From the IMG/VR virus record IMGVR_UViG_3300027704_000008, positions 74,623 through 138,622 of that record: 64,000 bases of DNA; one strand, given 5' to 3'. A program made the translations under genes and the position numbers. The notes below the pieces were generated by a model. The model had not been told where the DNA came from. It worked only from the letters and a program-made list of their open reading frames with translations, and ran no database searches. Positions 27,549 through 62,753 of the stretch are shown here, piece by piece. The stretch's first letter is position 1; every line of letters starts with the position of its first letter. Origin of the DNA: a virus.

Positions 27549-28124
27549 GTGAAGATTGGTTATTTACATGGGTATGCTAGTTACTATGATAGTGAAAACA
27601 TCAAGGTCAAGTCCCTTTCTAAGTTAGGTGAAGTCGTAGGATTAAACATTAATTATAATGCCGGTAATAATGTTATCGACATGGTTTGTAAGTGGTCGAT
27701 CGAACAACGCCTTGATCTAATAGTCGGATGCTCGATGGGAGGTTGGTTAGCTTCTCATGTTGGTGCCGCTTTGGGTGTTCCGAGCGTCATGCTCAACCCA
27801 GCTTTGTCTCCAAGCGCATGTTTGAGAAAATACCTCGATATTCCTGATGGTCAATTTGACTACGGTGGATATCCCATGGAATCGATTGATCCTAACGGAC
27901 TCAGTTCCTACCTGGATATTAATAAAAGTGGTTTCGGACTTGTATTGCTTGAAACTGGTGATCAAGTGTTTTGGTATGAGGACTCTAAATCAGAACTAGA
28001 TAAATACTATGAAGTAATTGTGATACCTGGAGGATCTCATAGGTTTGAGAGCCTTGACGATCAACTGGATCACATAAGCAAACACGTAGAATTATCGGAG
28101 CTTATATACGGTGTTGACCCTTAA
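27549..28124 (+). CDS. YqiA/UPF0227-like alpha/beta hydrolase
   Basis: YLHG, GCSMGG, LNP, D, GGSH.F. Confidence 0.85.
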   Translation: MKIGYLHGYASYYDSENIKVKSLSKLGEVVGLNINYNAGNNVIDMVCKWSIEQRLDLIVGCSMGGWLASHVGAALGVPSVMLNPALSPSACLRKYLDIPDGQFDYGGYPMESIDPNGLSSYLDINKSGFGLVLLETGDQVFWYEDSKSELDKYYEVIVIPGGSHRFESLDDQLDHISKHVELSELIYGVDP

Positions 28125-28734
28125 AGGATTTATCAGTGAACAACGCCTCGACGAGCGATATGTTAATGCCATTGGTGATAGAGACATTGATCTCAAGAAT
28201 CAATACAAACAGCAGGTGTGGGATCTATTGCAATCATCTTATGCTAAGAACGGTGGGTTGATCGGAAACGGTTTCCAGTCTATGGAAACCATGGTACAGA
28301 AGATTCCCATGTGGAAGATGGTCATCAATAATGGCAAAGTTGAAGCGGTGGTGTTATATAAGGATAAGGGCGGTCGCAAGTCAGTAGCAATGGGCAGCAC
28401 TCAAACGCCTTATGCTAGAAAAGCCATATCGAATTTATTCCCAGCAGAACTCCAACGGTCATATGGCGAGAAGTCCAAGAGTGCGCTTGGAGCGTTAATG
28501 AAGATAGTGCCTTGGAGCGTCTTAGAACCATATGTACAGACTCCAGCGCAGGTGAAGAAAGTGTCCAAGGATAGTATTACCTCGTTAAAAGATTTTAAAG
28601 GAACGTTGCCCGATGATGCCAAGGCAACGATATCTAAGTTTCCAGTACTCCTCCCTTATGGATATTTTAGGGAGATTGGTGGCAAGCTATCGTTTAAAGT
28701 AATGATCGGTACACCAGGCAAGACAATTAAATAA
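28111..28734 (+). CDS. hypothetical, probable head-internal protein
   Basis: N-terminus MLTLKGFISEQRLDE resembles the T4 capsid-targeting sequence. Confidence 0.55.
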   Translation: MLTLKGFISEQRLDERYVNAIGDRDIDLKNQYKQQVWDLLQSSYAKNGGLIGNGFQSMETMVQKIPMWKMVINNGKVEAVVLYKDKGGRKSVAMGSTQTPYARKAISNLFPAELQRSYGEKSKSALGALMKIVPWSVLEPYVQTPAQVKKVSKDSITSLKDFKGTLPDDAKATISKFPVLLPYGYFREIGGKLSFKVMIGTPGKTIK

Positions 28735-49327: not shown

Positions 49328-50491
49328 ATGAACAGGTTTGAGACGCTATACAAATATGATAGTAAGCAGCGCCAACGTGAGTGGGGGGTGTTTACTGAGG
49401 GTCCAAGAGTTACGGTTATACATGGTTTGGTCCTTGGCAAGAAAACTGTTAAGCGTACTATCAGCAAAGCTAAGAACACAGGTAAGGCAAACGCTACCAC
49501 AGCTGAAGAGCAGGCCATTAAGGATGCTCAGTCAAAGTGGAACGCTCAGGTTCTTCGCGACGATTATAACGTTGACATAGAGAAGTCAGGCCGCCAGATG
49601 CGCCCAATGCTTGCTCTCGATTATAAGAATGTTCCCCATCGAGTTGAATGGAGCATGCCGACATTGCTTCAGGCAAAGCTGGACGGTTTGCGTTTGACTA
49701 CCGGACAACGTGATGTGGGTGATAGAGAATATGATCCATCGCAGCCTATCGAGATGTTGAGCCGCAAGGGTGAGACATATGAGTTACCTCATCTAACAAA
49801 GCACTGTGGTGAGCTGCTTGCACACATCAACGATAAGTATGCCAACTGTCTTGCCCTGGATGGTGAGGTTTATATCCACGGCATGCCACTTGGACAGATA
49901 GTATCCAGGGCCCGTAAGTATCAACAAGGGGTGACAGAGGAGCTGGAGTATTACATATTTGACTTGGTGATACCTGGTATGGGATTTGGTGAACGATCAG
50001 AGATACTTTTGAAGGCAATGCAGGATTTGAATTCTCAGTACCCATTCACTCTTGTTACCACTTGCCCTTGCACCTCCGAACAGGACATGAAGGAATACCA
50101 CGCCCAATATATTGGGGAGGGTTACGAAGGTGTTATGATCCGGCCGGCCGATGGTCCATATACGATAGGCAATCGAAGCGATTATCTGTTTAAGTATAAA
50201 GAGTTCTTTGACAAGGAATGTAAGATTGTTGGCATGCAAGAGGACGCTAACGGTAACGCAGTGCTGACGTGCTTGTGGAATTCAACGGATCCAACTTCTG
50301 AGTTCCGCTGCACACCCAAGCGTACTCATAGTGAACGAGCGGCGATGTTACTGGACTCTACCTTGGTCGGAAAGTGGATCACAGTCAAGTACCAAGATGT
50401 ATCATACGCAACTCACTCTGGTGGTCTTCCGACTTTTAACACTGGCCTGGATATCAGGGAATGTGATGATAACGGAGAGCCTATTGTATGA
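49328..50491 (+). CDS. ATP-dependent DNA ligase with N-terminal extension
   Basis: PMLA, KLDG.R, LDGE, FD, EG.M.R, K.K, OB-fold C-terminus. Confidence 0.9.
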   Translation: MNRFETLYKYDSKQRQREWGVFTEGPRVTVIHGLVLGKKTVKRTISKAKNTGKANATTAEEQAIKDAQSKWNAQVLRDDYNVDIEKSGRQMRPMLALDYKNVPHRVEWSMPTLLQAKLDGLRLTTGQRDVGDREYDPSQPIEMLSRKGETYELPHLTKHCGELLAHINDKYANCLALDGEVYIHGMPLGQIVSRARKYQQGVTEELEYYIFDLVIPGMGFGERSEILLKAMQDLNSQYPFTLVTTCPCTSEQDMKEYHAQYIGEGYEGVMIRPADGPYTIGNRSDYLFKYKEFFDKECKIVGMQEDANGNAVLTCLWNSTDPTSEFRCTPKRTHSERAAMLLDSTLVGKWITVKYQDVSYATHSGGLPTFNTGLDIRECDDNGEPIV

Positions 50492-52987: not shown

Positions 52988-53491
52988 ATGAGTGGTCGAT
53001 TTGTAGCTGGGGTGGCACTGATGTGTTTCGGATCCTTATCCTATGCGGATGCGACATATAATCAGGAAGTCAATTGCCTGGCTGAGAACATATACCACGA
53101 ATCGCGAGGTCAAGGGTCAGACGGTAAGAGGGCTGTGGCTGATGTTACCATTAACAGAGTAATCAGCTCACGGTTTCCTAATACAGTGTGCGGAGTGGTA
53201 AGACAGGCACATATGAAGCCATCATGGAAGACGGGCAAACCAACCCCTATCAAAAACAAGTGCCAATTCTCATGGTACTGTGATGGTAAAGATGACACTA
53301 TGAAAAATGTTACTGCCTGGAAGGATAGTCTCAATGTAGCTCATCGAGCTTACTTCTTCCGAATGGAGGCTGATGTTCATAACGATACGGTCGTCGGCGC
53401 GATGTGGTATCATGCAACCCGCGTGACACCATATTGGGCTAGCAGCATGAACAAGGTCACCCAGATACGTAAACACATCTTCTATAAGTGA
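52988..53491 (+). CDS. SleB-like cell wall hydrolase (Hydrolase_2)
   Basis: signal peptide; CLA.NIYHESRG, V.NRV, QFSWYCDG, P.WA, H.FY. Confidence 0.93.
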   Translation: MSGRFVAGVALMCFGSLSYADATYNQEVNCLAENIYHESRGQGSDGKRAVADVTINRVISSRFPNTVCGVVRQAHMKPSWKTGKPTPIKNKCQFSWYCDGKDDTMKNVTAWKDSLNVAHRAYFFRMEADVHNDTVVGAMWYHATRVTPYWASSMNKVTQIRKHIFYK

Positions 53492-54222: not shown

Positions 54223-54230
54223 TATAAATA
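54223..54230 (+). promoter_or_regulatory. T4-type late promoter
   Basis: intergenic TATAAATA; gp55 is encoded in the window. Confidence 0.8.
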
Positions 54231-54272: not shown

Positions 54273-55091
54273 ATGGCGTTAAAGGGAGCTTTTGCGGATG
54301 AAGATGCCGCTTACGTTAAGATCAAGAGCAAGCTGGGCAAGTCGGCTAAAGTTTTTCAGAAGCCAGCTGGATCAGATGCTGGATTTCCTGATTACGGGTT
54401 CACCGTCACTTTAGACAATGACGACAAGATAGACCTCCACATCGAGTTTAAGAATTCTCATACTGCACAAATGGGTAGTATGAGAGACTGGAAATTTAAT
54501 GGTAAGGAATTCTACAGCCCCGATAAAAGTAACGAGCAAAAAGCTGAGCTGATAGATTTAATGAACGATACTCCAAAAGCTGTGGCTAACGGCAAACGCA
54601 TCCTTAAAGACCTAAAACAATATTTCTCGAAGGACGTGAAGGAGATATCTTCAGGTTCCCTATCCACAATTAAAGATAAAAAAGCTAGGTATAATGCAAC
54701 ACTGCAATTTGCTGACAACACCCGCGACTACCAAATTGCTGCAATAATTTCATCATCCATGGGCGATAAAATTATTAATCACTATAAGAAAAAATTTGCT
54801 AAGAGTCGAGTCACGTCGAGGGCTAGCGGTCACGTATTAATGATGCAAATAAAAAATGAGATATGGGTTGTTCATAAGTCGGGTAGTGTCAATAAAGCAC
54901 AGCTGATGGAGATAGCCGAGAAGATGGGAGCAACGGGCCCATTTGGTGTACTCAAGGGTCTCACAGCTCAGCTAGAAGTCAGGATTCAACCTCGCGGGTT
55001 GTCGAGTAAAGGATCAAAACCAACCTCTATTGATGTCATGGCATCCTTCAGACTGAAAGGCGCTCCCAAAGGTGGAACCAAGCTCCCGTGA
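54273..55091 (+). CDS. basic protein, PD-(D/E)XK restriction-like fold possible
   Basis: GFPD......HIEFK. Confidence 0.5.
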   Translation: MALKGAFADEDAAYVKIKSKLGKSAKVFQKPAGSDAGFPDYGFTVTLDNDDKIDLHIEFKNSHTAQMGSMRDWKFNGKEFYSPDKSNEQKAELIDLMNDTPKAVANGKRILKDLKQYFSKDVKEISSGSLSTIKDKKARYNATLQFADNTRDYQIAAIISSSMGDKIINHYKKKFAKSRVTSRASGHVLMMQIKNEIWVVHKSGSVNKAQLMEIAEKMGATGPFGVLKGLTAQLEVRIQPRGLSSKGSKPTSIDVMASFRLKGAPKGGTKLP

Positions 55092-56314
55092 AATCATTCA
55101 AGGGTTTTGTTACTGAACAAAAGAACACCCACATGACCCACGTGGAAGATGCTGTGATATACGGGGGCGTCAACGGTACTCGCCAAGCAATTAATGCACT
55201 CCGCGACATGAGAGATATGCTATCAGGATATAACGAAGGATCTGTATCCGTTAAGTGGGATGGCGCACCAGCAATATTTGCTGGCACTGACCCATCCGAT
55301 GGAAAGTTCTTTGTGGCCAAGAAAGGAATCTTCAATAAGAACCCAAAAGTATATAAAACTAAAGCTGACATCGACGCTGATACATCAGGTGACCTAAACG
55401 TCAAGCTTCAGCAGGCTCTCAAGTATCTGCCTGAACTTGGTATCAAGGGTGTCGTCCAGGGCGACTTCTTATACAGTAAATCTGACCTTAGCTTCAAAAC
55501 CATTAATGGAATAAAGTACACCACATTCCATCCTAACACAATCGTGTATGCAGTACCAAACCGCGCCAGTGATCAGAGTAAAGATATACTCAATTCTAAG
55601 ATTGGTGTAGTGTGGCACACTACATATAAAGGTAAATCCTTTGATACTATGACTGCTTCATACGGTGTCAACGTTAAGGCATTCAAAAAGTCCAAAAACG
55701 TGTGGAGTCAGGATGCTATGTTACGAGATCTAACATCCGCAACAATGAGTTCATCTGACACGGACAAAGTTAACGAGTACTTAGACCAGGCCTGGTCATT
55801 GTTTAAACAGATATCAGGATCTGTTATAAAAGAGTTGCATAATAATACCGAGCTAACTAAATTAATTGAAATGTATAATAACTCAATGGTCCGCGACCAA
55901 GTTGTTGTTACTAATACCAAGCGCCACGTTGACGGTTTAATATCGTGGATAGAGAAGAGATACTCAAAAGAGATGGACACTCGCAAGACGCAGAAAGGTA
56001 AAGATGCTGTTGCTGGCCGACTGAAGGAAATTATACAGTTTTTCTCTCCGGGCAACAAAGTTGCACTAAAGAAGTTGTTCGATCTGCAGAAGTTAATTGT
56101 ATTGGCCAAATTAAAACTTATAAATAAACTCAACAACTTATCGAGTGTTGATACTTTCGTTAAGACCAGGAAGGGATATAAAACCACTGGCGCGGAAGGT
56201 TATGTAGCAATAGATAAGATAGGTGGTGGGGCCTTGAAGTTAGTTGATCGAATGGAATTTTCGTTTAACAACTTCTCGCCAAATGTCATCAAGGGTTGGG
56301 ACAAATCCAGCTGA
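55088..56314 (+). CDS. conserved T4-like protein with ligase-type nucleotidyltransferase motifs (DUF6267-like)
   Basis: KNTH.TH.ED, VKWDGAPA, QGD, EGYV, KLVDR; CTS-like MKSFKGFVTE. Confidence 0.75.
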   Translation: MKSFKGFVTEQKNTHMTHVEDAVIYGGVNGTRQAINALRDMRDMLSGYNEGSVSVKWDGAPAIFAGTDPSDGKFFVAKKGIFNKNPKVYKTKADIDADTSGDLNVKLQQALKYLPELGIKGVVQGDFLYSKSDLSFKTINGIKYTTFHPNTIVYAVPNRASDQSKDILNSKIGVVWHTTYKGKSFDTMTASYGVNVKAFKKSKNVWSQDAMLRDLTSATMSSSDTDKVNEYLDQAWSLFKQISGSVIKELHNNTELTKLIEMYNNSMVRDQVVVTNTKRHVDGLISWIEKRYSKEMDTRKTQKGKDAVAGRLKEIIQFFSPGNKVALKKLFDLQKLIVLAKLKLINKLNNLSSVDTFVKTRKGYKTTGAEGYVAIDKIGGGALKLVDRMEFSFNNFSPNVIKGWDKSS

Positions 56315-56356
56315 CATTTAAACATATATTACATGGGACGAACCAGAGGAATTAAA

Positions 56357-57103
56357 ATGGCTAACAAAGAAGCCAAGAAATTAGTATCGCTCAAAACTTT
56401 TCTAAATGTGGATACCAACCCAGGAGAAGATGAGTTCACCGCCGCCAATGCCAAAAAGCGCAAGCAAAACGAAGATGCCTCATCTGAAGAGTTCACTTCT
56501 CACGATATGTGGGATCCTAAGACCGGCGAGAAGAAAACAGCAAAGACTAAAGCTCAGCACTTAGCCCTCAAAGCTAAAGGGTGGGATCACGAACGACCCA
56601 CCAAAGAGCAAGGTGTTGATGAAGAGTTGGGAGACCCTAACTCTGCCGCCAAGAGACCACAAAAATTCAAGAAACCTGATGGTTCAGTGGGTATCAAGAT
56701 GGTCCCCGCGAAACAAAACATTCAGACTGAAGCTCATAGGTACCTCGAATCATTCATAAATGAAACCGAACACTTGGATGAAGTTCTATCAATTTCAGGC
56801 CGCCGCAAGAAAGCTCGCTCTCTAAAGAAGAATAAAGCTAAGATTAAAATGGGCCGCAGAAAGGCTTCCAAGAAGATGGCCGACATTCCCCGATTGAAAA
56901 ACCGAGCTAATAAGCAAGCCCGCTCCGGGATGTTTAAGAAGCTAGCTAAGGGAAAATCTCGAGAGGATATGGGCCCAGCACAACGAGCTCAAATAGAGAA
57001 ACGCCTAGATAAGATGAAGGGCCGAATACAACGCATTGCTAAGAAGTCTATGCCAGCTGTCCGCAAAATGGCTCAAGCCCGTCTCCGACCCGCAAAGAAA
57101 TAA
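56357..57103 (+). CDS. highly basic probable head-internal protein
   Basis: K/R-rich segments separated by VDEE/LDE sites. Confidence 0.6.
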   Translation: MANKEAKKLVSLKTFLNVDTNPGEDEFTAANAKKRKQNEDASSEEFTSHDMWDPKTGEKKTAKTKAQHLALKAKGWDHERPTKEQGVDEELGDPNSAAKRPQKFKKPDGSVGIKMVPAKQNIQTEAHRYLESFINETEHLDEVLSISGRRKKARSLKKNKAKIKMGRRKASKKMADIPRLKNRANKQARSGMFKKLAKGKSREDMGPAQRAQIEKRLDKMKGRIQRIAKKSMPAVRKMAQARLRPAKK

Positions 57104-57109
57104 TATATT

Positions 57110-58096
57110 ATGGCAATTGGATCGTTTAAGCAGTATGTAACAGAAGAAGCCAACGAGGTTTACTTTACCTTCGGCCGCATGAACCCTCCAACAGTGGGTC
57201 ACGGTAAAGTAATGGATATGCTCGCCAAGAAGTCGGGTACCAATCCCTATAAAGTATTTGTCAGTCAAACCCAGGACGCTAAGAAGAATCCTTTATCGTA
57301 TAGCGATAAAGTTAGACACACCCGCAAGATGTTTCCAAAACACGCCCGCAACGTAATGATCAATAAGAAGGTCCGTACAGCAATCGATGCGATCACTTCT
57401 CTGTACGATGAAGGTCACGTAAACGTTGTCCTCGTCGTCGGGTCCGACCGCGTACGCGAGTTTGATGCTCTGCTTAATAAGTACAACGGTGTCAAGGCTC
57501 GACACGGATTCTATAACTTTAAATCTATCAAAGTAATTAGTGCTGGTGAACGTGATCCAGACGCATCCGGTGTTGAAGGTATGTCCGCCAGCAAGCAGAG
57601 ATCCAATGCACAAAATAACGACTTTGCGGCATTTAGTCAGGGAGTACCAACAGCCCTTTCCAATAAAGACACCCGCAAGCTATTCAACGATGTGCGTAAA
57701 GGGTTGGGTCTTAAAGAAGAGATCGTATTCAAAAATCACATTGAACTAGATAAGGTGTCTGATACCCGAGAGCAGTATATTAGGGGCGACTTATACTCCC
57801 TAGGGGACAGGGTACGGGTTAAAGAGAGTGGATCAGACGGAACCGTCAGCTGGCTGGGAACAAACTATTTAATGATAGATCTTGATGAAGGTGGCAGATC
57901 CCGTAAGTGGGTTGACGCTGTACAGCACATTGATGAAGTAATGGTCGGTAAACCCGACGCGCTTTCGAAGGCTAAAGATAAAATTGCTGCCGAGAAAGCC
58001 GTCGATAAAGAGAAGCATAAGAAGATTATGGCCCGCGCTCGTATTGCCCGCGCCCACAATAAAAATAGAATATCGAAACCAGGAGAAAAGGGTTGA
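57110..58096 (+). CDS. cytidylyltransferase-like (HIGH superfamily) protein
   Basis: FGRMNPPTVGH, KNPL, VVGSDR, SAG.RDPD, MSAS; CTS-like SFKQYVTE. Confidence 0.88.
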   Translation: MAIGSFKQYVTEEANEVYFTFGRMNPPTVGHGKVMDMLAKKSGTNPYKVFVSQTQDAKKNPLSYSDKVRHTRKMFPKHARNVMINKKVRTAIDAITSLYDEGHVNVVLVVGSDRVREFDALLNKYNGVKARHGFYNFKSIKVISAGERDPDASGVEGMSASKQRSNAQNNDFAAFSQGVPTALSNKDTRKLFNDVRKGLGLKEEIVFKNHIELDKVSDTREQYIRGDLYSLGDRVRVKESGSDGTVSWLGTNYLMIDLDEGGRSRKWVDAVQHIDEVMVGKPDALSKAKDKIAAEKAVDKEKHKKIMARARIARAHNKNRISKPGEKG

Positions 58097-61000
58097 AAAC
58101 TTTACATGAGATTCGGGGGATAGATCGTGCGGGCGAAGATGGCGATGCCAAAGATTGCGACAGCAGCAACCCAGGTAAAACCAAAAAGATGGCAATGCTT
58201 GATAAAGAAATGTATAAAATGACAAACCGCATTAGTGGGCAAGATCGTGATGATGAGTCACAAAAATTAAGTACCGAATCTGTTGAGCAGGTTCTAAATA
58301 GACGAGCGCTGGATTTTGATGAAGCAAACCGCGGCAGTTCATCGAAGCACCCGCCGGTAAAGGTTGGTGACAAGTTTACCCACGCTAATGTCACTCGTGT
58401 TGTTACTAAGGTAACACCCAATGGCATCCAGGCTACTCACACAAACGGCACCAGCCGAAGTGTACATGATCATGGTTATGTTCAGAAGCAAATGGTTGAA
58501 CAGGTTGAGCATGAAGCATTCAACGAATTGATGGAAGCAAATTTACCCATAAACATGCTCGTAGGTCCAAATGGTGTTGGTGGTGGACAATCTCTTAAAT
58601 CAGCAGCAAAAAGTTTGATGAAAGATGCTTGGAGATCACTTACTGGTAAGCAGAAGAAAGTAATCGCCAAGGTTCATAAACTCACTCAAACAGATGACGA
58701 ACTCGGAAAGTTGTATCGTGATGGTTGGAAGGGTGGCGGTAACTCAATGAAACCTGGAGCGCGAAAAGCATTCGATGCCAGAGTAAAAGAGTTGGTGCCA
58801 AATGAAGAGGTGAGGGATTACGATGCTGCTTGGAAAAGCGTTAGAGATAAAGTTAAATCTGCCATGAAAGACCAGAACGAATCCGTTGAGCAGGTCGATG
58901 AGTTATCCGGTGACAAGCTTCACGATTATTTAAGCAAGTCAATGCGGGCATCAGATAACCACAACAACCGAATGAAGGATGCTCTCAAAGTAACTGGTAC
59001 AGCTAAAACAGCTAGCACGGTACGCAGAGCTCAGAGAGTGGCAAACAATCAAGCAAACAAGCGAACCAAACGAGAGCTTGGTATCCAGCAGGCATTGTGG
59101 AAACAAACCGGTAAAGCTAAAGTTAACGCAACAGAGGAAGTTGAAGTAATGAAAGAAGCTGCGGGCCAACCAACCGGGGTTCATATACATATGAAAGCTC
59201 CAAACGGCAAAATAACAAAAACTACATTTTTAGGAACCCATAGCGCCGTTGGTGGGGCTAAGAAACACATTGCTGGTCTTGAGAAGAAGGGACACACTGT
59301 ACACAAGAAAGAGCTTGCATTTGCAGAAGGGATGGATATGGAATATCCTAATGCAGCATCGCAGAAAACTCGTGCAGCAAAGAATGCAAAACTCATAGCA
59401 CGAAACAAACGCAACATGGCAACAGCAAAGCGCAAGGGTGTTAAATACGACGACAAAGAATATCGTCCAAGGTTCAACGAAGATGCCGAGCAGGTTGATG
59501 AAAGTGTGTTGAATGACATCCGTGACTTTATTGTTGCTGTTGGTGCCGCAATACCAACCAAGAAAAATAAAAGAAATGCTGAAAACCAGAAACTAGAAAA
59601 TGAAATTCGCATGGCAATGCAAGCAGACCCAGAGTTTGATGAGATAGTTAGGACTGTTGTCATGGTCAGGAAAGATGGCGTCCCTGCATTTAAAGCAAAT
59701 GGCCAAACAAAACTTTCTGCATATGTCAGGAAGACTGTTGATGCAAAGGTGGCAGCGAAACTCGGAACTCTACAGAAAGGTCACATAAGAACAATGGCCA
59801 GCGGAGAGAAGAGAGCTGTTAGTACACCATTTAACAAGAAAGAAAGAGAAGCGAGAGATGCTGGAAAGATAAAGTACGGGGACGATATGGAGCAGACCCA
59901 CCGTGTCACCGCACATAAAATTGGCAAGATAATCAAACAGGTAGCACAACGAGCACACGCTGCGCAGAAAAACGAATCTGTCGAGCGGGTTGACGAGAGT
60001 AGCAAGATGTATTGGCCAAAAAGAGACACAATCCTCCGTATCAATAAACAAAACAAAGATAGAAAGGCGCAAGCGTTTGCAGAAAAAGACCCAGAAATAC
60101 TTGATGATGCAGTTAGAGACATAAACCGCTACCTCAAGAAATCAAAGGGAAACCCAAAAACGCTCAGTGCATATGATACTAAATTCTACCAAAGTTCAAT
60201 AGGAAAAATTGAGAGGATCTCTGGTAAAACCGCTGCAAAGAAACAAGTGGCGCAGATAAAGAAGAAATATAAGGGCGTGAAGGAATCTGTTGAGCAGGTT
60301 GATGAAGCAGTAGACGTTGCAAAAGAAATTGAAACATACGCTCGCAGGGCAGGTGGTATTGATAAGAAGGATATGTTGAAAGTTGCCTCTCTGTTGAAAC
60401 GGGGCGACAAGAAAGCGGCAATCAAGTTTGCAAAGAGATTGGACTCAGACCCTCGTGACTTCCTGTTAAGTAAGATGAACGAAGATGCCGAGCAGGTTGA
60501 TGAACTCAGCGTAGACACTCTGTCTCGATACAACAGCAAAGCATCCAAAGACCCAAAACGTGCCAAGATGAACAACAAGGCAGTGGGTAAGATTGTCAAG
60601 AAGACAATGCAAGGCGCTGCGCAAGGAAAGCCCGCTTTTTTCTCGCAGCGCCTTCAAGGCGAATCTGTCGAGCAGGTTGATGAGTTGAGCAACAAACTCT
60701 TGAAGCGATATGACCGTAAGGCAGCAACCAGTGCAGCGAACCTGCGCAGGAAAATGGACAAAACTGTCGCCACTGTTCGTAAGAGCGCAAGTGGGTATGC
60801 AACTCAAAAGCAAGCATCGCGATTCACAAAGGCAATGGATAAGCATAGTAACCGTATGGACGGTCAAGATCGCTCACAGCAGATCAAACTCAAAAGGGCG
60901 CAGAAAGAATCTGTCGAGCAGGTTGATGAAGGATCGACAAAAAAGATCGGCAAAGAAATTGAAGATTATGCCAACAAACAAAAACGCATCGATCCAGAGG

Positions 61001-61200
61001 AAAAGAGGGACATATTGAAAGTTGCTGCTATGATGAAAAAGGGCGATAGCAAGGGTGCTATCAAGTTCGCAAAAAGTTATGCATCAATCCTTCCCGATTT
61101 TGTGGTTGCTAAAGTCAACCCAACGCAACTCGAACAGGTTGATGCTGTAAGAGAAGCTAGGATGAGACTCAAACAATTTATAAATAATAACAACAAATAG
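58093..61200 (+). CDS. 1035-aa modular basic protein with repeated ESVEQVDE linkers (candidate head-packaged polyprotein)
   Basis: linkers at 58276, 58879, 59479, 59974, 60283, 60481, 60661, 60907 plus degenerate copies. Confidence 0.8.
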   Translation: MKTLHEIRGIDRAGEDGDAKDCDSSNPGKTKKMAMLDKEMYKMTNRISGQDRDDESQKLSTESVEQVLNRRALDFDEANRGSSSKHPPVKVGDKFTHANVTRVVTKVTPNGIQATHTNGTSRSVHDHGYVQKQMVEQVEHEAFNELMEANLPINMLVGPNGVGGGQSLKSAAKSLMKDAWRSLTGKQKKVIAKVHKLTQTDDELGKLYRDGWKGGGNSMKPGARKAFDARVKELVPNEEVRDYDAAWKSVRDKVKSAMKDQNESVEQVDELSGDKLHDYLSKSMRASDNHNNRMKDALKVTGTAKTASTVRRAQRVANNQANKRTKRELGIQQALWKQTGKAKVNATEEVEVMKEAAGQPTGVHIHMKAPNGKITKTTFLGTHSAVGGAKKHIAGLEKKGHTVHKKELAFAEGMDMEYPNAASQKTRAAKNAKLIARNKRNMATAKRKGVKYDDKEYRPRFNEDAEQVDESVLNDIRDFIVAVGAAIPTKKNKRNAENQKLENEIRMAMQADPEFDEIVRTVVMVRKDGVPAFKANGQTKLSAYVRKTVDAKVAAKLGTLQKGHIRTMASGEKRAVSTPFNKKEREARDAGKIKYGDDMEQTHRVTAHKIGKIIKQVAQRAHAAQKNESVERVDESSKMYWPKRDTILRINKQNKDRKAQAFAEKDPEILDDAVRDINRYLKKSKGNPKTLSAYDTKFYQSSIGKIERISGKTAAKKQVAQIKKKYKGVKESVEQVDEAVDVAKEIETYARRAGGIDKKDMLKVASLLKRGDKKAAIKFAKRLDSDPRDFLLSKMNEDAEQVDELSVDTLSRYNSKASKDPKRAKMNNKAVGKIVKKTMQGAAQGKPAFFSQRLQGESVEQVDELSNKLLKRYDRKAATSAANLRRKMDKTVATVRKSASGYATQKQASRFTKAMDKHSNRMDGQDRSQQIKLKRAQKESVEQVDEGSTKKIGKEIEDYANKQKRIDPEEKRDILKVAAMMKKGDSKGAIKFAKSYASILPDFVVAKVNPTQLEQVDAVREARMRLKQFINNNNK
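61179..61186 (+). promoter_or_regulatory. T4-type late promoter
   Basis: TATAAATA 25 nt upstream of ATG 61211. Confidence 0.7.
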
Positions 61201-61210
61201 GATCAATCTC

Positions 61211-61555
61211 ATGGACGACTCTCCCGAACGACGAAGAGGTCACGCTGCCGAAATGGCCCGCCTCGATCGCATCGAATCTAAGATCGATCGTATGGCAGAA
61301 GCCCTAATTTCCTTAGCGAGGGCTGAGGAAAAGATAGCGGCTATTGAAGAGGATAGAGCCGATCAACGAAAAAGGGAATTATTTTATGAGCAGAAAATTG
61401 AATCCTTATCAGAAGATATACACACAATGAGTCAGAGACTCAACAAAAGCCAGAATACGTTTGATGTAATAGGTAAATTGTTCTGGGTAACTATAGTGGC
61501 TGTGGCTGGAGTAATGGCCGCCCGAATTATACCAGGACTAGGAATTGGAGCATAA
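61211..61555 (+). CDS. coiled-coil protein with C-terminal transmembrane helix
   Basis: RLDRIE.KID heptads; FWVTIVAVAGV. Confidence 0.7.
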   Translation: MDDSPERRRGHAAEMARLDRIESKIDRMAEALISLARAEEKIAAIEEDRADQRKRELFYEQKIESLSEDIHTMSQRLNKSQNTFDVIGKLFWVTIVAVAGVMAARIIPGLGIGA

Positions 61556-61556
61556 C

Positions 61557-62753
61557 ATGAACAGAGACGACATAGTAAAAATGGGACAGGTTTGGCAGTC
61601 TGTGATCGAGAAAAAGAAGCCTGCTGATGACAAGGTCGAAATGGACCCCGTTGGTCAGGGCGACGACGACATCGACAACGATGGCGATACAGACGCTTCA
61701 GATAGTTATCTGAAGAATCGTCGTAAAGCTATCAAGAAAAGTAAGATGGACGAAGCTAAGACTGACGGTGTAGCTCCAGGATCTCTTGAAAAAGATGGTC
61801 ACTTGTGCGCTAGCCGAATCTTTAAAGCTGGTGTCGGTGAAGGAACTCCTGTTATGGGAGAGCATGCTGAGCCAGACGAAGATGGTTTCATATCTTGGTA
61901 CAACGTTGATTTTGATAACGGCGTTTCTGGATCAGTGGAAATGGTTGATGAGGATGTTGTGGTACTTGACGAGATGTCTCATGGCAGCCACAAGAAAAAG
62001 AAAATGAAGAAAGAATCTGTCGAGCAGGTTGATGAAATCTCTCAGGGTATGAAGAATCGATACATCCAACGGGCAGCAATGTCGACAGCAAGTAATGCAC
62101 ATTCAGACGGTGTCAGCAAAACTGGCCGCGATAAGTTGAAGCATAAAGATAAAGTTTTGAACAGGTTGAGAGGAATCAACAGAGCAACCAAAGAAGAAGT
62201 CGAGCAGGATGATGAGATGATCGCCGATGGCCGTCAGTTCAAAATCCCGAGCAACTACACTCAGATGATGGCCAATAAAAAGAAAAAGGCGGCGAAGGCG
62301 GCGAGGTTGGCTACTACTGACACTCAAGAGAAAGAGCGTCAAAGAGCTGCTCATATGAAAGGTGAACGATCAGATGGCGGATACAAAGAGTCGACTGACC
62401 AAGAGTTCATTGATGACATAGCAAAAGCTATCGTAGCTGAAGGTATTAAGAAGCACCACTCAACCGCCTCCGCTTACGTTGCAATGGTAGAAGCAGCTGC
62501 AAACGACCGCGTCAAGCACTATAAGGGCGCCGCTAAGCCCGAAGGTCATCTTGACGCACTTCCGCAGAGCCAGAAGGACTTTATTAAGTCTCTCGAAAAG
62601 AAGGCTGATGTTACCGATGAGGAAGAAGAGATAGACAAGGACTCCAAAGATCAAAAGAAGGGTCTATCACAGTCCCCAACTCGTCGTGGCGAAAAGCGCA
62701 ATAGTGAAAAGATGGATCAACCTAAAGACACAACCAAGGCTAACACACCATGA
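61557..62753 (+). CDS. modular charged protein (scaffold/internal-like) with ESVEQVDE linkers
   Basis: DIDNDGD..D.YL.NRRKAI; linkers at 62013 and 62193. Confidence 0.7.
   Translation: MNRDDIVKMGQVWQSVIEKKKPADDKVEMDPVGQGDDDIDNDGDTDASDSYLKNRRKAIKKSKMDEAKTDGVAPGSLEKDGHLCASRIFKAGVGEGTPVMGEHAEPDEDGFISWYNVDFDNGVSGSVEMVDEDVVVLDEMSHGSHKKKKMKKESVEQVDEISQGMKNRYIQRAAMSTASNAHSDGVSKTGRDKLKHKDKVLNRLRGINRATKEEVEQDDEMIADGRQFKIPSNYTQMMANKKKKAAKAARLATTDTQEKERQRAAHMKGERSDGGYKESTDQEFIDDIAKAIVAEGIKKHHSTASAYVAMVEAAANDRVKHYKGAAKPEGHLDALPQSQKDFIKSLEKKADVTDEEEEIDKDSKDQKKGLSQSPTRRGEKRNSEKMDQPKDTTKANTP

Follow-up and report, generated by a model that had tools for sequence, protein, structure and literature searches.

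The window analysed here is the last 64 kb of a 138,622-bp single-contig virus record (IMG/VR record IMGVR_UViG_3300027704_000008, positions 74,623 to 138,622; positions below are those of the window, and those preceded by C1 are those of the genome). Near its end lies a 1035-aa open reading frame (ORF) in which a 24-nt translated repeat separates protein modules, here called cassettes, and this array, its exchange between phages and the possible fate of its product are our subject. The record has direct terminal repeats and is rated 100% complete, and the sequencing runs containing this DNA all carry the label marine metagenome. PHROG matches to baseplate wedge proteins, tail sheath, large terminase and portal point to a T4-like myophage, and a head maturation protease (phrog_207, E 7e-76, C1:69056-69718), a scaffold protein and the major head protein are found in the T4 gene order. 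Judged from its sequence, this is a complete marine T4-like myophage. The nearest cultured phages by capsid protein are Phage C48C1 (66%) and Stenotrophomonas phage vB_SmaS-DLP_6 (59%), followed by Methylophilales phage Melnitz and Pelagibacter phage HTVC008M (58%).

The cassette array and its translated repeat

The array ORF starts with a TTG that overlaps the stop of the upstream ORF and has GGAG 7 nt to its 5' side, and the gene callers of public collections place the start identically (P0001). A repeat search recovered eight clear copies, at 58275/6, 58878/9, 59478/9, 59973/4, 60282/3, 60480/1, 60660/1 and 60906/7, plus one at 61130; the eight are the same that a preliminary description of this DNA had listed. 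Their start-to-start spacings are 603, 600, 495, 309, 198, 180 and 246 nt. The ORF and its repeat copies are given below, where L numbers are IMG/VR loci, X numbers are sequencing runs of other samples, and a joint such as 59502>60283 brings two window positions together in a contig.

58093-61200, plus strand: cassette-array ORF, 1035 aa, TTG start, leader MKTLHEIRG, isoelectric point (pI) 9.86
58276-58299, plus strand: repeat copy 1, ESVEQVLN; position-specific scoring matrix (PSSM) score 10.5, 3' half degenerate
58492-58515, plus strand: degenerate copy MVEQVEHE; blastn blocks to L027, L033 and L022 start at 58511-58513
58879-58902, plus strand: repeat copy ESVEQVDE; homology blocks stop at 58889-58902
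59134-59157, plus strand: degenerate copy EEVEVMKE; BLASTP ends cluster at residue 350
59479-59502, plus strand: repeat copy EDAEQVDE; joints 59502>60283 and 59475>60478 in contigs of other samples
59974-59997, plus strand: repeat copy ESVERVDE; 98.2% block to L033 from 59971, joint 59982>60490
60283-60306, plus strand: repeat copy ESVEQVDE; 98.2% block stops at 60296, joint at 60283
60481-60504, plus strand: repeat copy EDAEQVDE; joint 60488>60669 omits 180 nt in X3 and X4
60661-60684, plus strand: repeat copy ESVEQVDE; block to L007 spans 60660-60911
60907-60930, plus strand: repeat copy ESVEQVDE; another cassette after 60930 in X3 and X4
61126-61149, plus strand: degenerate copy QLEQVDAV; block to L033 stops at 61142

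With at most two mismatches allowed, GARCAGGTTGATGA is matched 16 times in the window (1.36 expected), and none of 100 shuffled sequences reached 16; nine of these matches fall within the array ORF and three within the ORF at 61545-62753. A six-frame scan of the 138,622-bp genome found the peptide confined to these two ORFs, weak look-alikes aside. The three degenerate copies, which the preliminary description had placed near 58495, 59135 and 61130, are real, since homology breakpoints coincide with them (58492, 59134, 61126). The protein is rich in Lys and Arg, as had been proposed (213 of 1035 residues, net basic). The same description had called the modules mostly unrelated, which is correct for most of them and incorrect for residues 739-796 and 947-1035, which are paralogues. 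Tandem Repeats Finder yielded only a 29-nt low-score array, and the array ORF is therefore not a tandem repeat protein. As read from the sequences, the repeat copies contain no in-frame ATG, GTG or TTG, so that the cassettes cannot be translated separately, and separate internal translation starts for each cassette were ruled out. The units are thus divided by a recurring separator (eight strict and three degenerate copies) and have no starts of their own, as is characteristic of a polyprotein. An invariant GTTGATGA is present in every repeat copy (e.g., 60676-60683) and is read as TGA TGA in the +1 frame; a ribosome slipping there would terminate immediately, and this arrangement may be due to chance.

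The repeat DNA is more alike than its peptide would need, as the preliminary description had claimed. The eight strict copies have a mean pairwise DNA identity of 0.865, which exceeds the 0.72 +/- 0.015 simulated from genome codon usage as well as the 0.726 simulated from the codon usage of the array ORF itself, and 0 of 5000 simulations reached 0.865 in either model, i.e., codon bias does not predict the observed identity. Copies with identical peptides have an identity of 0.932 within a genome against 0.846 between genomes (0 of 2000 label permutations), which fits concerted evolution, and which differences in codon usage between genomes could partly explain. Codon preferences that depend on position are also found across genomes, i.e., GTC at V3 in 45 of 72 copies and GTT at V6 in 57 of 66. 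Both the within-genome identity above codon-usage prediction and these preferences would be expected if the repeat were chiefly a DNA element for a dedicated site-specific recombinase or homing enzyme, with the peptide as a by-product. Yet the 79 copies in other contigs vary synonymously (CAG 40, CAA 33; last Glu GAA 40, GAG 39), and as synonymous sites vary across genomes it follows that selection keeps the peptide. Moreover, no recombinase was seen beside the arrays, where no recombinase search was made, and the joints described below are in frame, two of them with 15-27 nt of homology, as general homologous recombination predicts. We consider such a DNA element very improbable.

Exchange of cassettes at the repeat

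A word-indexed protein search gave 84 relatives, all metagenomic, of which 45 are 571-1383 aa long and 39 are shorter. If modules are exchanged at the repeat, as had been proposed, their number and order should differ between relatives and breakpoints should coincide with repeat copies, and colinear relatives would speak against this. The window protein has no colinear counterpart among the 84 relatives, its best local alignments extending over 4-45% of its length with identities of 31-93%, and variation at the repeat was found in protein relatives, in DNA blocks and in near-identical natural variants alike. The strict motif E[SDNAE][VAI]E[QHKR][VIL][DEQ]E is present in 40 of the 45 long and 28 of the 39 short relatives, with up to eight copies in a protein. 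With a PSSM, 308 sites were found in 72 of 85 proteins (the window protein included) compared to 0.009 per shuffled protein, and with this difference and the excess of matches in the window a chance origin of the repeat was ruled out. When searched singly, each window module was found in its own subset of 4-21 other proteins. Modules 3, 4, 6, 7 and 8 begin 0-1 residue past the motif in most matches and mostly stop 1-10 residues ahead of the next one, with differing positions and neighbours. Cutting the 85 proteins at the motif gave 383 modules, which group into 155 families (58 with at least two members), and their order varies; family F18, for example, precedes F7 in P0003 and follows it in P0008, and in the window protein it comes behind F0. 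The architecture is accordingly mosaic and rearranging, as in polyvalent proteins, with 155 families in varied order and, as described below, gain and loss at the level of strains.

Single cassettes were also searched for outside the arrays. An exhaustive HMMER search with the cassette at residues 471-627 gave four representatives only and no stand-alone form, and the best score for this cassette in the ESM Atlas was 0.75, which is below the useful range. The interchange of leader and motif described below is based on other cassettes. AlphaFold2 gave a poor model of residues 455-643 from an eight-row alignment (mean predicted local distance difference test (pLDDT) 55.3, predicted template modelling score 0.46).

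As the module families are cut at the motif by construction, breakpoints were tested independently. Of 201 ends of BLASTP alignments with the uncut window protein, 107 are no more than 5 aa from a motif (for distinct ends, 47 of 101), where 13.9% would be expected; these ends are not mutually independent. In blastn comparisons with IMG/VR loci, 18 of 21 block ends are within 12 nt of a repeat against 17% expected, a count that drops L005 (same contig as L033) and one terminus at a contig end. The clearest case is the cassette at 59971-60296, which has 98.2% DNA identity to contig L033 and of which the 95-aa cassette is 100% identical; in L033 the cassettes that flank it in the window are absent and others are merely 80-90% identical. 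A non-coding repeat was ruled out, as relatives are conserved as protein and this block is 98.2% identical as DNA yet 100% identical as protein.

Exchange is also seen between strains. Logan contigs of four runs from three other studies (X3-X6) were compared with the window over 57800-61500; two runs that may be the source of the record were left out, and stretches without contig cover were not counted. The X3 and X4 contigs track the window with few differences and lack 60489-60668, a stretch of exactly 180 nt that reaches from one repeat to the next. In X4, 59503-60282 (780 nt) is swapped for 264 other letters, and in both X3 and X4 the sequence past the repeat at 60930 is that of window 62037-62066, i.e., the cassette behind the repeat of the neighbouring ORF. 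A short X3 contig omits 1002 nt (59475>60478), and X6 contigs omit 507 nt (59982>60490) and 291 nt (60615>60907). The lengths of all five skips are divisible by three, and four of the skips have both ends in, or at most 4 nt from, repeats. Of the ends of the 291-nt skip, one is at a repeat, and at the other (60616) a loose end in X6 reads repeat sequence. At two of the five skip joints, 15-27 nt could be assigned to either side. The repeats have 24-27 nt in common, a length at which mis-joins by the Logan assembler are conceivable. There is little doubt that homologous exchange at the separator removes, replaces and adds cassettes and transfers them between genes and genomes, and related phages, even near-identical strains, therefore carry different cassette sets.

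Candidate cleavage sites and a putative packaging leader

What becomes of the array protein is a separate question. In T4, gp21 cuts after Glu in L/I-X-E, core proteins are cut at several sites, and gp23 loses a propeptide of 65 residues, according to the account in PMC9026906. Residues F62-L63-T64-E65 of T4 gp23 align letter for letter with FLTE of the capsid protein of this phage (C1:70801-72156), and the remaining capsid propeptide differs from that of T4. As FLTE is conserved, the specificity of the protease has probably been kept. The separators of the array end in V-D-E, i.e., hydrophobic-X-Glu, and the residue that follows VDE is Ala, Gly or Ser at 79 of 155 sites and Leu or Ile at 46 of 155. 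If the protein were cut behind every separator, eleven pieces would result, ten with masses of 6.6-18.4 kDa and pI 8.2-10.5; the predicted N-terminal fragment of 69 residues has a pI of 5.0. When the protease was modelled in complex with a 40-residue peptide containing one motif, the score was 0.01, which speaks neither for nor against cleavage.

It is conceivable that the same recombining array is never cut and acts as a large basic protein of the beads-on-a-string type, either as a DNA-condensing component of the core or as a cytoplasmic binder of nucleic acid, with the acidic motif as a spacer or a docking motif, e.g., for the scaffold. Conservation of all eight motif residues, more than a protease site needs, fits such an uncut protein, and so do the look-alike LAEQVEG in the scaffold protein, the many relatives that have no CTS-like leader (see below for the capsid-targeting sequence, CTS) and the mean pLDDT of 55 for the one cassette modelled, which leaves a compact fold unsupported. 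On the other hand the separators end in hydrophobic-X-Glu and the next residue is mostly small, the phage has a T4-type protease together with its conserved site in the capsid protein, and one cassette is found directly behind a short leader ending in I-D-E, as in T4 internal proteins with their cleaved leader. This cassette, AKNPHPMG..., is preceded by an internal ESVEQVDE in P0008, P0011 and P0033, by an N-terminal MKYDIDE in P0015 and P0030, and by MLKFNKFKSVEQVDE in P0016, and as it stands behind either leader or motif, the end of the leader and the separator are interchangeable; among the observations that favour cleavage we give this one the greatest weight. An array that stays uncut is in our view unlikely, if the most serious of the alternatives.

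The ORF starts bear on possible packaging. The T4 CTS is described as MKTYQEFIAE, with residues 4 and 7 serving targeting and residues 8 and 10 processing, which an Asp at position 10 blocks, and T4 internal proteins are described as basic, of about 8, 10 and 20 kDa, present in hundreds of copies and directed into the core by a 10-residue leader. The pattern M[KL][ST][FLY]xx[FI] is found at the start of 9 of 247 ORFs of this phage against 0.15 expected (60-fold), and seven of the nine have Glu at position 9 or 10. They include the array ORF (MKTLHEIRG), the neighbouring DUF6267 ORF (MKSFKGFVTE), a 62-aa ORF (MKSFQEIREA) that follows a TATAAATA and immediately precedes the protease gene, and four ORFs from the opposite end of the record. 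The terminal repeats suggest that, in replicating DNA, this opposite end adjoins the end of the window. Together, the ORFs with a CTS-like leader may define the set of head-packaged proteins of this phage. Pfam gave nothing informative on the other leader-bearing ORFs. Among the 84 relatives, nine start with MK[KS]F..F.E and continue as motif arrays, and the leader of P0080, MRTLDEIRAL, resembles that of the array ORF. Further ORFs starting with MK[ST]F..F.E are found at C1:128-2854, C1:62352, C1:68864 and window 28111-28734; the one at C1:2345 has a module that is 72% identical to one of polyprotein P0037.

The timing of expression may be read from TATAAATA, which is the T4 late promoter consensus. 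It has 17 copies in the genome, 11 of them within 60 nt 5' of an ORF start, mostly before structural genes, and in other loci it is found 14-33 nt upstream of 6 of 23 motif-bearing ORFs when a range of 150 nt is searched (0.039 expected per ORF). Two copies flank the cluster of genes to which the array belongs:

54223-54230, plus strand: TATAAATA, late-promoter-like, 42 nt before the ORF at 54273, the first gene of the cluster
61179-61186, plus strand: TATAAATA, late-promoter-like, 24 nt before the ORF at 61211, the next operon

A polyprotein could also be cut outside the head, by a host protease or another phage protease, and its cassettes could act unpackaged in late infection. Some 60 kb separate the array gene from the head genes, and the genes around it are non-structural (a DNA ligase homologue lies at 49328-50491, an endolysin-like ORF at 52988-53491); this position and a packaging signal that is putative would suit such cytoplasmic processing. 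However, T4 internal-protein genes are also situated away from the head genes, in two loci, as far as PMC12373910 describes them. The late-promoter-like sites flanking the cluster, and the 60-fold enrichment of a CTS-like leader that is common to the array ORF and the small ORF beside the protease, argue against it as well. We regard processing outside the head as distinctly improbable.

Several observations weigh against exchange at the separator followed by cleavage and packaging in the head. With regard to exchange, 3 of the 21 blastn ends are off repeats (59453, 60068 and 60613), and a sixth joint (59489>59370, back 120 nt) has only one end on a repeat. With regard to cleavage, the first repeat copy, ESVEQVLN, is devoid of the terminal Asp-Glu, P3 of the motif is Val and not Leu or Ile as in T4, and, as the eight conserved residues exceed what L/I-X-E needs, the motif may serve a different purpose or a further one. 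The leader of the array ORF, MKTLHEIRGI, has L4 and I7, and no Glu at 9 or 10. Among the long relatives, 21 of 45 begin with DUF7230, which is unlike the CTS; both cleavage and packaging are here inferred. For the 1035-aa ORF, blastn and tblastn gave no match among 50,697 phage records, T4 included, and Pfam and PHROGs gave no domain in it or in three single cassettes. Phage C48C1, the closest cultured phage by capsid protein, has no EQVDE-coding site, and no laboratory system is therefore at hand. DUF7230 itself, which corresponds to an N-terminal NPVAKHMRTFNKATVQRDRKKD (relatives among P0002-P0043; L031:1-1638, minus strand), is absent from the genome of this phage; a likeness to the ribosome-rescue factor ArfA was unsupported by a Pfam scan to E 10 and was dropped.

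With these points taken into account, we lean slightly towards the whole reading, an exchangeable cassette array joined to basic proteins that are cleaved by the prohead protease and packaged in the head. That the array protein is cleaved, head-packaged cargo is the best reading of its sequence, and we hold it with about even confidence. The array consists of about eleven independent in-frame cassettes of 52-193 aa, mostly basic and each preceded by ESVEQVDE, and the separator, which is the site of homologous exchange, would also serve as a site for the T4-type prohead protease, most likely at V-D-E followed by a small or hydrophobic residue. The polyprotein would be made late, carried into the prohead core by its N-terminal CTS-like leader, and cut by the protease into basic proteins of 6.6-18 kDa, which would stay with the DNA and be ejected along with it. 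Such a system would be the polyprotein equivalent of the T4 internal proteins. It is possible, by analogy, that the ejected cassettes neutralise DNA charge or have anti-defence roles like those of T4 Ip1-3.

Neighbouring genes and known systems

The genes on either side of the array share features with it:

55088-56314, plus strand: DUF6267 ORF, Pfam E 1e-97, leader MKSFKGFVTE
56333-57103, plus strand: 256-aa basic ORF with degenerate motifs EQGVDEE and ETEHLDE and with cassettes of the arrays of relatives
57110-58096, plus strand: cytidylyltransferase-like ORF, leader MAIGSFKQYVTEE, AVQHIDE at about 57918-57947, basic tail
61545-62753, plus strand: second motif-bearing ORF, 402 aa, ESVEQVDE at 62013-62036 and EEVEQDDE at 62193-62216

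The ORF at 56333-57103 has BLASTP matches to P0003, P0006, P0008, P0011, P0033 and others, and the cytidylyltransferase-like domain is fused to motif-separated cassettes in relative P0037. The neighbours of the array belong to the same system. Eleven IMG/VR motif loci also hold homologues of the DUF6267 and cytidylyltransferase-like genes, L031 in the same gene order. PHROG 455 unites the DUF6267 and cytidylyltransferase-like domains in one profile of 764 positions. The DUF6267 protein may be a packaged enzyme; it has no match in the PDB by sequence, and its word VKWDG presumably resembles the KxDG of ligase-type nucleotidyltransferases.

Downstream, the ORF at 61545-62753 shares cassettes with the arrays of relatives, and its cassette at 62037 lies within the big ORF in X3 and X4. 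Its N-terminal part (61545-61750) is DPVGQGDDDIDNDGDTDASDSYLKNRRKAIKKS, rich in Asp-x-Asp-x-Asp-Gly, which recurs at the N-terminus of P0052-P0056 and P0076-P0078 and internally in P0004, P0005 and P0046. The 114-aa ORF at 61211-61555, 24 nt behind TATAAATA, has a coiled-coil part and a hydrophobic C-terminus, with weak matches to DUF7201 and to a PHROG labelled hemolysin, and is possibly a membrane or lysis protein.

The closest parallel to the array is found in the internal proteins of T4 and the T-even phages (IPI, IPII, IPIII and other internal proteins). The predicted products are likewise small and basic, CTS-like leaders of the form M-K-T/S-aromatic-x-x-F/I ending in hydrophobic-X-Glu occur in this phage, if not in full at the array ORF, and the phage has a T4-type protease and the FLTE site. 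The loci are also alike in that their gene content is highly variable and has only the leader in common; T4 internal proteins are mutually unrelated apart from the leader, as PMC12373910 describes them. The differences are that up to eleven units are here fused in one frame, whereas T4 has separate genes with leaders of their own, that the separator is ESVEQVDE and not the CTS, that there is no sequence similarity, and that cleavage and packaging are predicted.

Polyvalent proteins, as described by Iyer et al. (2017, PMC5512222), are similar in having many unrelated modules in one polypeptide and in their mosaicism, and for them too capsid packaging and delivery with the DNA are predicted and processing by proteases is discussed, as is proposed here. 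In contrast to them, Pfam and PHROGs found no hallmark domain (MuF, ParB, ART, peptidase) in the array ORF, nor does it have the 2-15 recognisable conflict-related domains given for polyvalent proteins in that account; its modules are small and basic, and a fixed repeat delimits each and marks exchange, which differs from polyvalent proteins as there described. Several X-X-Glu sites for a gp21-type protease in a single protein are reported for T4 gp22, gp67 and gp68 and for the ejection proteins of phiKZ and SPN3US (PMC9026906, PMC5694885, PMC7411985, PMC10052503), cleavage of the array being predicted. Unlike the array, these head proteins of T4, phiKZ and SPN3US are colinear and conserved among relatives. 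In T4-type modular shuffling, too, modules are gained, lost and replaced by recombination at short conserved sequences (PMC2839356), but the elements described there are non-coding, regulatory and intergenic, whereas the repeat of the array is translated and lies inside one ORF. Fusion of many units in one frame, with a conserved translated repeat that doubles as exchange point, is new. The full-text literature searched, which did not extend to subscription journals and supplements, has no paper containing the motif and none naming DUF6267 or DUF7230, and none was found that joins polyprotein, prohead protease and ejection proteins, or that joins the CTS with marine phages, in the sense of the array.

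It is tempting to speculate further that ESVEQVDE is the translated counterpart of an integron attachment site, a single 24-nt element serving both capture and loss of cassettes and their release by the prohead protease, with the leader loading a strain-specific and combinatorial set of small ejected proteins, which by analogy with T4 Ip1-3 would likely act in counter-defence. Integron- and shufflon-like systems use a dedicated recombinase; two of the joints found here share 15-27 nt of homology, which fits general recombination. We offer this analogy as a tentative possibility.

Exchange of in-frame cassettes at a 24-nt coding repeat is documented here regardless of cleavage, and it is visible between strains of different marine samples. 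If the separators are cleaved, the array would be a one-gene system that packs many small proteins into the head in equal amounts, and new cargo would be plugged in at the very site that the protease cuts, in parallel with the engineered T4 capsid-targeting sequence used for protein delivery. This would explain how open-ocean T4-like phages diversify the proteins that they inject, and motif and leader together would make it simple to recognise the injected proteins of phages that are not in culture. Should the parallel with integrons also hold, the arrays of marine T4-like phages would constitute a large, unexplored and self-indexing library of counter-defence factors.

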